Of a DNA stretch of 64,000 nucleotides, positions 2,175 to 59,164 are shown piece after piece. The notes beneath the pieces were generated by a model. The model did not search any database and was not told the origin of the DNA. It was given only the letters and a program-made list of their open reading frames with translations. Numbering within the stretch: position 1 is the stretch's first letter; every line of letters starts with the position of its first letter. Position numbers and translations under genes: made by a program. This stretch comes from an uncultured Hormoscilla sp. (GTDB lineage Bacteria; Cyanobacteriota; Cyanobacteriia; Cyanobacteriales; Desertifilaceae): the NCBI GenBank assembly GCA_963921275.4, contig OZ001293.3, positions 2,944,001 to 3,008,000 of the forward strand. Reading direction: 5' to 3'.

Positions 2175-5100
2175 TTATCGAGATAATGATTGCAGCCAAA
2201 CCTGATTATTGCGCAACTCTCGTAGACTTGCTATAATTTTCACTGCATTTTCTGGATCTTGCACCCAGAATTCATGTCCAAAACGAATCACACGACGAAT
2301 GTGAAAGTCTTTACCCTCGACGAGCGCGAGCACGGGAACTTTGGGTTTATGGGTCTCTCCTGAGAGGTCTTTCAACCTTGATGATAGTTGATTGTGAAAT
2401 ACCTTACTACTAGCCATCTTATCGGTCAGTTTCATCACCACCAGGTAATTGAGTTCAATCCGGACAGCGTCTGACACCATCAGCAACCACCTTTCGGCAT
2501 CCTGTTGTTGCACTTTCCCCCAAAGCATGACAAGGCTGTCCTCCCACCGTTCCGGAAAAATCAGAGATGAGCCAATTTTCTGATACAGCTCTGGTTTAAC
2601 AATGGCCACACCCGATCCAGTCAAGTCCTTAAGCACCAGAAATGTCAGGCGTGAGTCCTCTGGTTTATGTTCAGTATGATGGACTTCTTCGATCGTAGCA
2701 ACCACCCGGACAGCTACTTGGGAGTGCTGTTGTGACAGATGGCTGAGATTAATCGGATCGAGACCCAGTTTTTTCGCTGTGAGTTGTACGGACTTCAGGT
2801 GCTGGAGTTTTTGCCGATCGATTTCACCTTTTGTTTGGGTTGGCGATCTGAAGCGATCGCTATCTGGAAAAACGTAAGACTGCTGCGGCGTCCTCAAACG
2901 CACCAACCGCTGCTCTGATTTGACGAACGCTGCGCGAAAAATCGACTCATTTTCTTCTGGTTCTGACTGAGGTTCCATATTCATCTTCTGGTGTTTTGGT
3001 GGCTGGCTATCTGAGGCGATCGAGGATCTCCCCCCGGGGGTTTCAACCCCCGACAACCCCTGACCATAAGGGGGGAACCCCTCATTTTCTTCTGGTTCTG
3101 ACTGAGGTTCTATCTCGATTTTTCGCGCAGCGTTCTCCTGTTTTGGTGGCTGGGTATCTGAGGCGATCGAGGATCTCCCCCGATTTTTCGCGCAGCGTTC
3201 CTCCTTCCCATACATCTCGAACCGATCTATTTCCGGTTCCGACTGGGGTTTTGTTCCGGAAAAATCGTCCGACATCAACTGCTCCTCTGGTGGCTGGAAG
3301 TCATCTATTTCTGGTTCCCACTGGGGTGCGGATAACATCCTCTGCTGCTCTGGTTTTTCAGCATTATCCACGATCAACTGAACTTTTTGTTCATCCTGGC
3401 GATCGGGTTTCCCTATGAGGATCCGTGGATTATCATGTTCGAGCAACTCTTCAATATCTTCATAACTTTTGGGAAAGACGATCGCTTCTGCTTTTCCAGT
3501 CAGGTCTTCTATTTGCATAAATGCCATGCGATCGCCATTTTTCGTGATATGCTGTTTCACCTCTGTAAGCATCACTAGGACTTTAATCTGTGTTCTGCCT
3601 TTTTGCTCCTCTAGCTGGTCCAAATTTATGGCATCTTCCGGTCGCTGCACCGATTTCAGGGGATGAGCCGAAACGTAATATCCCAAGTATTCCTTTTCCC
3701 ACTTCAACTTTTCTTCCACGGTACAATCCTTAACAACCGGTAGCTCCGGAGCCGGTGACTTAAAGCTTTCCATGTTAAATAGAGTCAGCTGGGAGCCGGA
3801 GTTAAGGCTATTTTTATTTTTCTGTGCCCACTCGGTCACGTCTTTGAGATATTCTAATAATTGATAGCGATTGGAGTTTATCATATCGAATGCTCCACAT
3901 TTGATTAAAGCTTCCAAAGCGCGTTTGTTTACCGCCTGCAAATCTAGACGATCGCACATCGAAGCCAGATCCTGAAACTCACCACCCTCTTTCTGGGCCT
4001 TAATAATAGATTCTATTGCATGTGTGCCCAGATTTTTCACCGCCGACAGTCCAAATAAAATCTTTTTTCCCTCTGGCCTAAATTTCACTCCAGAGCGATT
4101 AATATTTGGTCCTTCTACCTCAATGCCCATTTTCTTACAATTAACGATATATTTTTGCACCTTATCCTGGTCGGAGCTGTTTTCACTCAGCAGCACCGCC
4201 ATATATTCTTCGGGATAGTTCGCCTTTAAGTAAGCCGTTTGATAGGTTACATAGGCATAGGCTGTAGAATGAGATTTGTTAAAGCAATATTCGGCAAACT
4301 TCACCATTTGCTCGAATAAACTTTCCGCTACATCTGTATGTATACCATTTTTTGCCGAACCATCTAGAAATTTTTCTCTATGCTTTTGCATTTCTTCTGG
4401 CTTCTTTTTTCCGATACTTCTCCTCAGTAAATCTGCTTGACCCAAGGAATATCCTGCCAAATCTTGAGCTACTTTCATAATCTGTTCTTGATAAACTAGA
4501 ACTCCGTAAGTTTCTTTGAGAATTGGCTCCAGCATGGGATGTTCGTAGGCAATTTTTTCCCGACCGTGCTTGCGATCGATAAATTTATCAACCAGTCCCG
4601 CATCCAAAGGTCCAGGTCGGTACAGGGCTAGAATCGAAGATATATCTTCTATATTATCAGGTTTCAATTTCTGTACCACCTGACGCATTCCCGAAGATTC
4701 TAATTGAAAGATGCCTTCTAAATCCCCTTTCCCTAGCAGCTCGTATGTTTTTTTGATATCTGGGGGAATTTTCTTTACTGTTCCTTTTGCAAAAATTTTC
4801 CAAGCTTCTCTCTCCTGTAGGGGAAATTGGTCTGGATTTATATCAAATTTACGAGTTTCTTTAATCAATTCTACCGTATTCTGAATAATCGTCAAGTTTT
4901 TCAATCCCAGAAAGTCCATTTTTAACAGACCCAGAGATTCCAGTTCTTCCATCGAATACTGAGTGATCGCCGCCCCTTCATTATTCTTTTGCAGCGGCAC
5001 AATTTCATCCAACGGTTCCGCTGAAATCACCACTCCCGCTGCATGCACGCCAGCGCTTTTGTTTGTCCCTTCTAACCGCATCGCCATATCTATCCACTGG

Positions 5101-38684: not shown

Positions 38685-38954
38685 ATGGATTATCAAATCA
38701 CAGCAGTGGATTTAGTCAATCGCGCCTATCGCGGTGCCTATCGCGCAGCGCGATCGCTGCGCGAAAATAGAGAAACCAAGGAATTTATAGTTATCAGGCC
38801 CTCGTCCTCTCTTATACGAGGCGCACATTTACTGCTAAAGATCTGGTGGAAGCAGCCGTGAAAGCCAAACTAATCCAGGAAGCTGCTGTTAATGACCGGA
38901 GGTACTTAAATGATGTCAATGCCCAACTAAAAGCTCTCGAAGATATCTGGAGAT
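38685..38954 (+). pseudogene. small frameshifted hypothetical gene carrying a GC-rich repeat insertion
   Basis: MDYQITAVDLVNR... continues in another frame as FTAKDLVEAAVKAKLIQEAAV... Confidence 0.3.
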
Positions 38955-39520: not shown

Positions 39521-40436
39521 TCATATTTGGGATAATTAAAAATCGCGATAGCCTACTTGGAGTCAATGGAAAGAGATTTTTGAAAATTATCTCATTTTAC
39601 CAGAGATTCGGAAACATCTTTATGCCCAGATAATCTGCATGACTTTGATTTGGGATGCTAATTTAAACTTGATTGACGAAAAGCTCGATATTCACTCTCC
39701 TTTTCTTACTGCTAAACTGGAGAAAGAAGCAGATTTAGAATGAATAGTCGCCCTCACGTTAATTTCTGGTGCTATCTATCTATTGCCCGGAAAAGCGGAG
39801 AAAATGGGTGAGGCAATGAATCGCCAATGTCCAGTAGGGGCATGGCATCAGCAGTAAGATAGGTTAATCGAAACATGTTTAAAATGCCGTGCCCGGCTCC
39901 ATGCGATCGCCATATTCCGCCGACGCTGGAGAGAAATAGCCGAATAGTCAAAAAAACCGGGTTTCCGACTCAGCAGAAACCCGGTGCATTCCGATTAAAG
40001 GAGAACGCTGCGCGAAAAATCGAATGTCATGGTACAAATCCCATCATTGTCAATCGCTTCCCCCCAGGCGATCGCCTGGGGATATCCGGTCAGCAACCAC
40101 CACCAGAACGGGGGTGGGCGCGATTATTCTACCGGTGCTTGTTCCGACTTATCAGGGTAATAAAATTGCCCTCCAGCTTATTCGGCACAATTCGGCACCA
40201 TATAATTTGCACCGGCAGTATGTCGCGCAACAATGAGGTTAAATTCGTACATATTCAATCTTCCTTTTTGGTAATTTTCTATTGCTATTTTTATAGTAAT
40301 TCATAATTTTTGATTTGGATATAAAAAAATTAAAAATTACCAAAGTTTTTTAATTTTTTTTCTGGGGACGACATGGCACTGGCGCAGGCATCCGGTGATG
40401 CTGCTAGGTGGATGGTGGGCAGTGCCCACCCGACGT

Positions 40437-41363: not shown

Positions 41364-41499
41364 GACCTTGTTGATTGTTAATGGTTAAAGGTGAATTGCC
41401 AGCTTCCCGAGAAACGGAAGGCATTGGCAATCTGGTAGAGATTGTACTCCAGAAAGTAAAATATATACTATACTGAAGCAGGTTTGATAGGTGAGGTTG

Positions 41500-43595
41500 A
41501 TGATGATGGCTGCGGCTCGTTTTTGGCGGAAAATCAGGAATTGGTGGGCCTTCGGGCAGAAGGGGAAAAGAATGATTTTGGCCTTGCTACTCATGCTGCT
41601 GTGGTTGATACTTTTAGGGCCAGCATGGCAGAAAAGCCTCCAGAAAAGGCGGTGGTGAAGGTGCCAGTGATGCTGGATGGTAGGGAGTTGTTTCGGGTGA
41701 GTAATTCTGGAGAGTTCACTGCCGCCGAACGAGGGAAAAATATTGATGCCCTACTAGAGGAAAAACTAGATGGGACATTGAAATCGGGTAGGTCTCTGGA
41801 GGTAAAAATCGCCCAGCAGAAGGAACCAATAACCCTGCGGCTCAATGACCAGCATCTGGTGACGGTGACGGAAAGAGATACCATTCCAGGGATGATGTTA
41901 GCAGAACAGGCGCAAATATGGCAGGAAACTCTTCAAGAGGCGATCGCCAGAGCCAAATATGAGCGAACACCTGCTTACATGGGTCTGGCGATAAAACTGA
42001 CTCTGGGGAGTATAATAGGGGCGCTCGTCCTACAATGCGCACTTGTCTGGATAGGTAGGCGGTATAGACGCCGACATCTGCGACGGGAAAGTAGCGAAAA
42101 AGGATCTTGGCAATTATTAGTGCTGCTGCTACTGCGGATCGGGGTAGGGATAGCAGTTGCTAGTTATATCGCCAATTTATTCCCCTGGACTCGTCGCTGG
42201 CTATACAAAGCCTACCAAGTTTTAATAACCACATTTTCAGCTGAGATTTTTACCTTAGGAGAAGAAGCAGTTTCACTCAACCGACTGCTGCTGATGGCTG
42301 TCTTAACACTGGGACTGTGGATAGGGGTCGGTTGGTTGATCAAATTGCTGAAATCTCAGATCTTACCCTTAGCGGGAGGAGACCAAACTGTCCAAGAGTC
42401 GATCGCCTATTTCCTCCGCTACGGGTTAATTTTCTTTGGTTCCCTGCTAATCCTCACCGTTGGCGGGTTTGACTTTCATTCCCTGGCCATTATAATTAGC
42501 GTCCTGGGGGTAGGAATTGGCTTTGGACTGCAAAATATTGCTAAAGACTTCATCAGTGGCTTGATCATGAGCTTCGATCGTCCGATAAAAGTCGGTGAAT
42601 TAGTCCAAGTCGGGGAATTTCAGGGTTTAGTCCAACGCATAGGTCCGCGCGTTACCGAGATTTCTACCATAGAACGAGTAATTGTGATGATACCCAATTC
42701 TCGGTTTATCGAAGGGGAGGTGCAAAACTGGCATCGTAGCGGACTGACTCGCGTGAAAGTCTATGTCGGGGTCCCCTATGGTGCGGATATGGAATTAGTG
42801 CATAAAGTGCTCTTAGCTGCTGCTCAAGCTGCTCAAGCTCACCATCCTGATATTTTACGCCATCCTCCCCCCAAGGTGAAGTTTCGGGGGTTTGGCGATA
42901 GCGCCCTCAATTTTCGGGTGGTGGTGTTTATTCGCGACCCCCTCAAGGAACCAAAGGTGAGAACTCTTGTTTACAATCAGGTTGAAGCTTATCTGCGCCA
43001 ATATCATATCAAAATTCCTTTTCCCCAGCGTTCTTTACAGGTAAATATCCCTCAATTTAAGGAACTGGCCGCAAGTTGGCAAAACCAACCAGCTAAACAG
43101 GATCCTTACTATCCAGATCGAGCCAGGGACGAACGCTGCGCGAAAAATCGAGATGATGATACCCCAGCACCCCCGGTCGTGCAAGCAGAATATGATTGGC
43201 AGGCGATCGTTTCCCAGATGCGGGGACCGTCCGGAGTAGAAATTAAAGACCGCCGATATAATCTGAAGTCGTTCGACAAATGCTTTGTCGGGTCCGAAGC
43301 AGTAGACTGGTTGATGGAGCATGAAAAAGCTACCAGAGAAGAAGCGATTCTGATCGGAGAATTAATGGTCTCCGGGAAGTTAATTCACCATGTCCTGGAC
43401 GAACATGGCTTTAAAGATGGACTCTTATTCTATCGCTTCTATGCTGATGAAGATACCACGTCCAAGCCAGATAAATCCAATTTTCAGCCCACAGCTACCG
43501 TTCCGGAAAAATCAGAACGCGATCGGGGTCTAGACAATGACGACGATCGAGACAGCAAGGATAGAGAATATTCTGGAGGAGTTATCGATGACTAA
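41500..43595 (+). CDS. MscS mechanosensitive channel with C-terminal DEP domain; probable frameshift after the signal peptide
   Basis: GIGFGLQ..KDFISG, IPNS, FGDSAL; DEP-like CFVGSEAVDWL..IHHV..F.D..LFYRF; hydrophobic leader in another frame up to about 41628. Confidence 0.85.
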
Positions 43596-44452: not shown

Positions 44453-44779
44453 AGAGTTGGGAAAGTAGCATAGCTGGTGCCGTTCCGGAAAAATCGGATT
44501 GCTCGATTTTTCCTCAGTTGCGCAATTTTGATTCCGGATCGGAGGTCGTGCTGATAGAACTCGATATACAGTAACGCATAAGGTAAGAGCAATCTAGTCC
44601 GATTTTGTCCCGCGTTCTGACGCTGAGTTCAAAAACTGGGAATCAAACGCAAATATGAGATGCACCCTCGCACTCTCATCAATGCATCGCGAGGCTGTAG
44701 CGGATGCGCCCTCGATGTTTGGGATACCTCCTGCTGTAGAGAAGAAATGGGAACCAATCATTCATCTGTCATTGCCAAC

Positions 44780-58819: not shown

Positions 58820-59164
58820 TAGCGCGTAGGGCGGGCGGATCGCCTGCCGGGGATGAACCTAGGGCGGGCGCAATACTTCTCGGTTAATAACTTGTCATTG
58901 CGGGGGGCTCCCAAACGAGCATTCTTCTGATCCCCGCGCTTAATCCCCCCCGAAGCAATCTCACCTCCGACAGCGCTTTTCCTCTCATACGGGGCGGGGG
59001 GATTGCTAGCCCTCCTGGCGTCGGGCCGCTGCGCTAACCGGGGGGGTTAACGAACATGAACGCATAAGTTAATCGCTACGTACTCCCCCCCACGCTGCGC
59101 GAAAAATCGCAATGACAGATAAGATGCTTAACCGAGAGGTATTGAGGGCGGGCGGATCGCCTAG

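Follow-up and report, generated by a model that had tools for sequence, protein, structure and literature searches.

Filled and empty sites of a 15-nt insertion placed 5' of TCG in Hormoscilla, including three within dnaE

The closest known counterparts of the repeat described here are the small dispersed repeats (SDRs), SDR1-8, of Nostoc punctiforme and its relatives, SDR5 above all; the comparison was made by description and not by sequence. SDRs are reportedly 21-27 nt long, and Elhai and co-workers are said to have noted in 2008 (Genome Res 18:1484) hairpins with compensatory changes (SDR4-6), nesting, and copies riding in larger elements. SDR5 reportedly occurs exclusively within HIP1, the highly iterated palindrome of cyanobacteria, which is the octamer GCGATCGC. 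We know of no enzyme that has been assigned to the movement of sequences of 15-27 nt since the SDRs were described in 2008. Here we report on a 15-nt repeat, AACGCTGCGCGAAAA, found in a 64-kb stretch (the window, i.e. the whole of the DNA analysed) of the genome of a Hormoscilla sp. (G000; 7.03 Mb, 47.4% G+C, 4754 HIP1 octamers), and on the family of insertions to which it belongs. SDR5 sits precisely after the third nucleotide of HIP1 and ahead of the fourth, according to an excerpt of Elhai (2015, PMC4390886), and an excerpt of Xu et al. (2018, PMC5861425) states that no SDR-like repeat was found outside Nostocaceae.

A preliminary description of the window had listed five exact copies of the 15-mer and one 14/15 copy. 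All of them were recovered by a search of the window: exact matches at 2926-2940 (+), 3120-3134 (-), 3185-3199 (-), 40004-40018 (+) and 43132-43146 (+), and a one-mismatch match at 59091-59105 (+). That list was incomplete, in that a second one-mismatch match at 38753-38767 (+) had been missed. The matches with up to two mismatches numbered seven, against 0.16 expected, and none of 100 shuffles reached seven. All five exact copies in the window lay between G and ATCG, as described. The genome-wide count gave 29 exact copies, G preceding 28 and ATCG following 25 of them. Direct reading found no TAA, TAG or TGA on either strand of the 15-mer, in agreement with the claim that it is stop-free in all frames. 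Translations and Pfam matches also agreed with its occurrence in three different frames inside dnaE and once in an MscS-type gene.

The boundaries had been placed at G^ATCG, and these proved to be one base off. A repeat of about 2.4 kb that carries 17 copies was identified as a group II intron (Rfam RF00029 on the opposite strand; an open reading frame, or ORF, with RVT_N, RVT_1 and GIIM). Of 61 aligned intron copies, 14 were filled (CTACTTGC^ACGCTGCGCGAAAAA^TCGGCGAT) and 47 had a precise 15-nt gap (CTACTTGC^TCGRCGAT). Since the intron sites are preceded by C, they fixed the inserted unit as ACGCTGCGCGAAAAA, designated E1, placed 5' of TCG without target duplication; sites in a C-run repeat, likewise not preceded by A, gave the same boundaries. 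The G^ATCG reading is E1 shifted one base to the left, and is possible only where A precedes. The exact 15-mer was also only a subset of a family with the constant core CGCTGCGCGAAAAATCG, which had 94 exact copies in G000 and 119 when one mismatch was allowed; 62 of these 119 had unique flanks.

Site statistics were taken from one representative per flank cluster, and the 120 copies of E1 fell into 77 independent clusters. TCG followed at 73/77 sites, so that, read on the opposite strand, the unit follows CGA (181/183 sites by the first base in the larger set of clusters described below). The preceding base was A at 49, C at 22, T at 6 and G at none of the E1 sites. Over all modules of the family, G at position -1 was found at 0/289 sites, compared with 18.6% of all genomic TCG sites. 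Removal of E1 restored GATCG at 44/77 sites, CGATCG at 30/77 and full HIP1 at 3/77, and many of the sites were C^TCG or T^TCG. CGA stands upstream of 13.9% of genomic TCG sites. On this background, the HIP1 core is an approximately 2.8-fold preference of E1 and not its target. The link to the HIP1 core made in the preliminary description thus held as a preference, while GATCG as the target did not.

The dnaE gene provided a test of presence and absence at orthologous positions. Its three E1 copies, at aa 1155-1246, are downstream of the OB fold (Table 1), and the 3' part of the gene was aligned with its orthologues in four other Hormoscilla species (G001-G004), which are 82-91% identical. The site of copy 1 was empty in G001, G002 and G003 (GACG^ATCGAC or GGCG^ATCGAC) and covered by a larger deletion in G004. 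At copy 2, G004 had a precise 15-nt gap (CATCTCGATCTCCTG), and the whole local block was missing from the other three species. The site of copy 3 was empty in G001, G003 and G004 (CCCCCGA^TCCTCC). A closer strain, represented by contigs of the public run X5, lacked the 15 nt at 2926, 3119 and 3184; X5 and G000 have 0.31 of sampled words in common and differ at about 40 letters over 1101 bases. A contig of another run, X8, was identical to G000 over 3159-3340, copy 3 included. The X6 and X8 contigs span parts of the compared stretch only. Two of the dnaE copies had been thought to derive possibly from local duplication. As each copy has its own separate empty site of 15 nt, none of them is a local duplicate of another.

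The same segment of dnaE showed other variation. A block of about 150 nt is duplicated (local repeat 2946-3035 / 3083-3184), and it contains at 3033-3082 a G/C-run insert of 46-50 nt (GGGGGTTTCAACCCCC...GGGGGGAACCCC), which is shared only by G004 and absent from G001-G003. In appearance this insert is a further small element that has entered the variable C-terminal segment of dnaE.

Table 1. Features of the window discussed in the text
Feature	Position	Strand	Remarks
dnaE ORF, 1495 aa	2175..6662	-	Pfam: PHP, DNA_pol3_alpha, finger, HHH_6, tRNA_anti-codon (OB fold aa 1033-1102)
E1 copy 1 (ACGCTGCGCGAAAAA) in dnaE	2927..2941	+	Antisense to the gene, phase 2; adds IFRAA in ...SIFRAAFVK... (peptide IFRAAFV)
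Empty target GGCG^ATCGAGG in G000	3018..3019	+	Occupied by ATCGCTGCGCGAAAA in one X5 contig
E1 copy 2 in dnaE	3119..3133	-	Sense, phase 0, peptide ENAARKIE
E1 copy 3 in dnaE	3184..3198	-	Sense, phase 1, peptide ERCAKNR
Probable old diverged E3 copy, TTTGTTCCGGAAAAA then TCG	3250..3264	+	Gives DFSGT in DnaE; tentative assignment
Variant ATCGCTGCGCGAAAA, only four A, no TCG behind	38753..38767	+	Degenerate or partial copy, status uncertain; no aligned orthologue in relatives
E1 copy at GGAGA^TCGAAT	40005..40019	+	In a 147-aa open frame without Pfam match; no aligned orthologue in relatives
MscS-type channel ORF with C-terminal DEP domain	41460..43595	+	MscS domains aa 359-519, DEP aa 592-660; hosts copy 43133
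E1 copy in linker (about aa 558-562)	43133..43147	+	Between MscS C-terminal domain and DEP domain
E3 copy with one mismatch (GCCGTTCCGGAAAAA then TCGG)	44479..44493	+	Antisense, in N-terminal part of SurE ORF
Exact E1 copy in short host repeat, CCCCCC^TCGCAATGACA	59092..59106	+	The earlier 14/15 copy, then read one base to the left

The comparison was extended to 12 further copies of G000. Of the 15 copies in all, seven had empty 15-nt sites in relatives, three were shared filled sites, one was ambiguous and four had no aligned orthologue. The empty sites outside dnaE were at C1:4890100, 4889006, 4897438 and 4892246. The shared filled sites were at C1:4887048, 4898737 and 4899923, and the ambiguous one was that at 43132 in the window. 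The copy at 59092 belongs to a flank cluster of 15 members, and both relatives and paralogues of its host repeat lacked the 15 nt. For the reciprocal comparison, at least 84 loci holding an 18-mer in public genomes were checked for a spanning match in G000. The relative was filled and G000 had a precise 15-nt gap at L017, L027 and L066. L045 and L072 were also empty in G000, as read by eye with substitutions allowed. Several loci lay within the C-run repeat, and about ten were shared filled sites.

One target was occupied in different ways: C1:4892246 held E1 in G000 and a 24-nt module in G004, and was empty in G001. This indicated that the same target had been hit independently. Nesting was seen in relatives, whose E1 copy at 4898737 is interrupted by 16 extra nt, and as extra nucleotides in G000 inside copy 4899923 and opposite L009. 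None of the compared sites had a 5' truncation. Copies appear and disappear from species to species, and also from one closer strain to another. Insertion was precise, orientation-specific and of fixed length, and was placed 5' of TCG without target duplication. We interpreted the 15-mer as very probably a copy of an ultra-small, non-autonomous family of mobile mini-insertions. The suggestion of a mobile unit in the preliminary description was borne out by the precise empty sites of the three dnaE copies and of four further genomic copies, as was its expectation that empty alleles would be found in relatives.

A k-mer survey combined with flank tables revealed two sister modules. E3 (ACCGTTCCGGAAAAA, 15 nt) had 238 copies in 183 independent flank clusters, with TCGG next at 154-170 of the 183 sites. 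E5 ([T/A]CGGTCCGCGGACGGCCCGAAAAA, 24 nt) had 79 copies in 29 clusters, many of the copies being carried in groups of five by a multi-copy insertion sequence. The length of E1 and E3 was exactly 15 nt as measured from empty-site gaps, and E3 also had precise empty paralogues within the genome (C1:2471258, 6439889, 5578788 and 4816597). At E3 sites CGATCG was restored at only 12/183, and full HIP1 at 0/183. The probable old E3 copy in dnaE was present in G003 and degenerate in G001, and three of its first bases were off the E3 consensus.

The three modules share one plan: an A, a GC stem of 3 bp around a loop of 3 nt, exactly five A, and then the target TCG. All had a single orientation relative to the target, and no bases were duplicated at unambiguous sites. 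The A-run was five in 100, 189 and 66 copies of E1, E3 and E5, respectively (355 in all), and four or six in none. The stem-loops were of the types CCG-TTC-CGG (174), CGC-TGC-GCG (77), CCG-TGC-CGG (18), CGC-TAC-GCG (12) and CGG-TTC-CCG (2). Among near variants with distinct flanks, the stem was intact in 50 and broken in 16, and 32 of 55 single changes fell on the middle base of the loop. The module lengths are all multiples of three, and the modules are stop-free on both strands, so a copy inside a gene simply adds five (or eight) residues. In its behaviour E1 ranks with the smallest known mobile elements, and it preserves the reading frame.

The variant ATCGCTGCGCGAAAA formed a tandem array of six 15-nt units at C1:4116586-4116675 (L136); the genome has no other tandem array of the family. 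As the variant starts with TCG, every copy brings a new target with its 5' end, and this could be the reason for the array. The only close pairs of modules lay within insertion sequences or in this array. A multi-copy element, at L135 (C1:433800-437200) and in about 11 paralogues, had a weak DDE_5 match and contained the 24-nt module five times, with 34 nt between two of the copies. It persists as many near-identical copies.

The modules are confined to the genus Hormoscilla among the genomes searched. A 17-mer was present in all five Hormoscilla genomes (94, 20, 26, 48 and 41 copies); 36 genomes from 29 other genera in the order lacked it. With a degenerate pattern for both E1 and E3 there were 249 matches in G000, and two single matches in 400 other Cyanobacteriota genomes (156 genera). 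In a species-level public collection, 53 of the 80 matches listed were in Hormoscilla assemblies, and the other 27 were single matches in unrelated taxa.

Within G000, independent copies inside stop-to-stop ORFs of at least 600 nt numbered 37/77 for E1, 101/183 for E3 and 17/29 for E5 (48-59%). The corresponding values were 54% for random positions and 61-63% for CGATCG, TCGG or HIP1 sites. The modules are not depleted from ORFs and are about as frequent there as random positions are. They were also clustered. E1 gave 20 pairs no more than 5 kb apart against 4.2 expected, and E3 gave 105 against 24; none of 2000 simulations reached either number. This fits local hopping or permissive regions.

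How such a unit is moved can only be suggested from known systems. IS200/IS605 elements and their small derivatives, the systems of the HUH Y1 transposases, depend on hairpins; they enter next to a fixed word of 3-5 nt, keep one orientation and do not duplicate the target. The Hormoscilla units likewise adjoin a fixed word on one side, in fixed orientation and without duplication. On the other hand, known IS200/IS605 elements are at least about 100 nt long and need a hairpin of about 10 bp at each end, while the modules have one 3-bp hairpin in 15 nt, with no linked transposase found, no shared ends and no strand bias. REPs and REPINs are also short hairpin repeats spread within a genome, and are mobilized by RAYT, a single-copy domesticated HUH enzyme, according to an excerpt of Bertels and Rainey (2011, PMC3116915), in which SDRs are named as a possible relative of REPINs. 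REPs are extragenic, about 20-35 nt long, form doublets, and cluster beside the RAYT gene. The modules differ in being singlets of 15-24 nt, about half of them in ORFs and none near Y1 homologues. The modules may spread by copy-and-paste, or by cut-and-rejoin, through an enzyme acting in trans. The route that we prefer would be a single-strand nick followed by strand transfer, perhaps with pairing between the target TCG and the ...CGA that forms the foot of the module. A DNA strand transfer of the IS200/IS605 or REP-RAYT kind, which puts elements beside a fixed word of 3-4 nt and duplicates nothing, is put forward only tentatively, as a possibility that we would not call probable.

Several observations weigh against the mobile reading or against this route. 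For E1 the pairing idea predicts C as the fourth target base and fails, the fourth bases of E1 sites being A in 34, C in 24 and G in 19. The Y1 transposase (PF01797) did not separate genomes with modules from those without, as homologues were present in 15/15 genomes searched, and no module was near either Y1 homologue of G000, the nearest being 6.5 kb away. A search for larger repeats ending in AAAAA^TCG turned up nothing but internal portions of such repeats, and no candidate for an autonomous partner. The folding energy of the hairpin (-2 kcal/mol, z about -1 to +0.6) was no better than that of shuffled sequence, so that the support for the hairpin comes from covariation among a few sequence types of shared ancestry. 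No strand bias was seen (E1, 36+/41-; E3, 85+/98-), and GC skew gave no usable origin or terminus, so that there were no replication arms on which a lagging-strand preference of the IS200/IS605 kind could be shown. Insertion was told from precise excision only by parsimony over five genomes and one run. The runs are contigs and not reads, and the differences are therefore between strains and not polymorphism within a population. At the E1 copy at 43133 the relatives differed by more than 15 nt and gave no clean empty site, and no orthologous stretch was aligned in relatives for the copies at 38753, 40005 and 44479.

The opposite view is that the unit is not mobile at all but ancestral or locally made, for instance through gene conversion with the array at C1:4116586-4116675 as its source, or through repair associated with HIP1. 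On that view the empty sites would be precise deletions. Precise loss is possible at any single site, the six-unit array does exist, and E1 prefers CGATCG, where methylation or cutting is special according to an excerpt of Elhai (2015, PMC4390886). We consider this very unlikely. The dnaE sites were filled only in G000 (copy 3 also in the identical X8 contig), while the X5 strain and the aligned sister species (3, 1 and 3 of 4 for copies 1 to 3) were empty there; the identical 15 nt had unrelated flanks, lay in both orientations and were read in three frames; E3 sites were mostly not HIP1-like; and one target held different modules in different species. High conservation of the core, the fixed length of the A-run and the conserved stem would also be expected of a functional site that is maintained by selection and not inserted, for instance a peptide motif or a word for regulation or protein binding. 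Yet the modules occurred in coding and non-coding DNA alike, on both strands and in all frames, as well as inside introns and insertion sequences, and their presence differed between strains, which makes selection for a functional site still less plausible. Nothing was found in favour of an assembly or sequencing artefact, which was ruled out, to a vanishingly small residual chance, by the presence of the module in four other Hormoscilla assemblies, in named public records from four assemblies of the genus, and in contigs of independent runs.

More serious than these is the alternative that the modules are copied via RNA, the hairpin and A5 transcript being reverse-transcribed by a group II intron reverse transcriptase and patched in at TCG. 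RNA intermediates were reportedly proposed for SDRs by Elhai and co-workers in 2008. Beside the modules, Hormoscilla has group II introns in a swarm (RF00029 matches: at least 151 in G000, 143 in G002, 111 in G003 and 144 in G004, at most 150 candidates being scored per genome), and five genomes of the sister genera g2 and g3 had 0-4 matches. The intron ORF encodes the domains named above, and the module ends in an A-run. The A-run is, however, invariably five, with four or six in 0/355 copies, and neither 5' truncation at the compared sites nor target duplication was seen, unlike in target-primed reverse transcription. Taken together, an A5 that does not vary and copies with neither truncation nor duplication speak against a reverse transcription primed on the tail. 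G001, a fragmented assembly, has modules (20 copies of the 17-mer) but only two intron matches, and the co-occurrence of modules and introns amounts to one phylogenetic event. We regard copying via RNA as unlikely, though less so than the absence of mobility.

The comparison with SDRs can now be taken up again. The modules resemble SDRs as very short dispersed repeats in unrelated flanks that are thought to be mobile, here with both filled and empty sites. Nesting and riding inside larger elements, as reported for SDRs, were seen in the Hormoscilla modules. Stem types that co-vary were seen as well, but the stem has only 3 bp and its energy is no better than that of shuffled sequence. The position of SDR5, with the third HIP1 nucleotide before it and the fourth behind it, is the G^ATCG place of the earlier reading, and the HIP1 core, CGA^TCG, is often split by E1 and E5. 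The differences are in length, in target and in lineage. E1 and E3 are 15 nt long, and only the 24-nt E5 falls in the range of SDRs; the target in Hormoscilla is H^TCG, HIP1 being merely a preference of E1 and E5; and the modules are in Hormoscilla and not in Nostocaceae. HIP1 itself is unlike the modules, being an octamer maintained in place and not an insertion. The modules are shorter, not confined to HIP1 and from another lineage, and were therefore filed as a new variant of the SDR kind and not as a member. The likeness to HIP1-targeting SDRs drawn in the preliminary description stood insofar as SDR5 is the nearest described analogue. No description of the Hormoscilla repeats was found in the literature searched.

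Rickettsia palindromic elements (RPEs), which Ogata et al. are said to have described in 2000, reportedly lie in frame in protein genes, are about 100-150 bp long and have no defined 3-nt target. The modules are similar as selfish repeats that stand in frame in essential protein genes and add peptide segments, and differ in being smaller by about an order of magnitude. They show that stop-free selfish DNA with a length divisible by three can escape the cost of landing in genes, and that an essential replicase can take up repeated five-residue insertions in a variable C-terminal segment.

The anatomy of the family is clean: a fixed length with A5, one 3-nt target word, no duplication, and three sister modules of one design. 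Since presence and absence differ between strains a few per cent apart within a 300-nt stretch of dnaE, gain and loss could be counted in population data, and a mobilization assay would have a defined substrate. The family also extends SDR-like elements beyond Nostocaceae, contrary to the statement, based on the earlier survey, in the excerpt of the 2018 paper (PMC5861425). A more far-reaching version is that the 15-nt units still move at present, that no smaller mobile DNA has yet been defined, and that a dedicated enzyme recognizes only the 3-bp hairpin, A5 and TCG. As stop-free multiples of three, the units would then be a natural mutator, inserting peptides in frame and reshaping even essential proteins, DnaE among them. 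We offer this as a speculation and would sooner doubt it than expect it. If it were true, finding the enzyme would also solve the movement of the Nostoc SDRs.

Some further observations concern the hosts of the modules. The group II intron is abundant in G000, where a 12-mer of its 5' end occurs 411 times; one example is L134 (C1:1670200-1673000). The C-run host repeat was found at 59070-59125 in the window and at 14 other places (e.g. C1:2232967 and 4872748), with the C-run followed by TCGCAATGACA; in relatives it read TCGCTCCGGACA. This repeat has received E1 repeatedly between the C-run and TCG. At C1:6640320-6640561, compared with L058 and L076, the relatives had ACGCTGCGCGAAAAA and G000 had ACGCTGCGCTCCGGA, in which the last six bases are replaced. 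The TCCGGA word of this locus alternates with AATGA in the C-run repeat. The DEP domain of the MscS-type ORF was matched by PF00610 with an E value of 3.8e-23; this domain is known mostly from eukaryotic signalling proteins.

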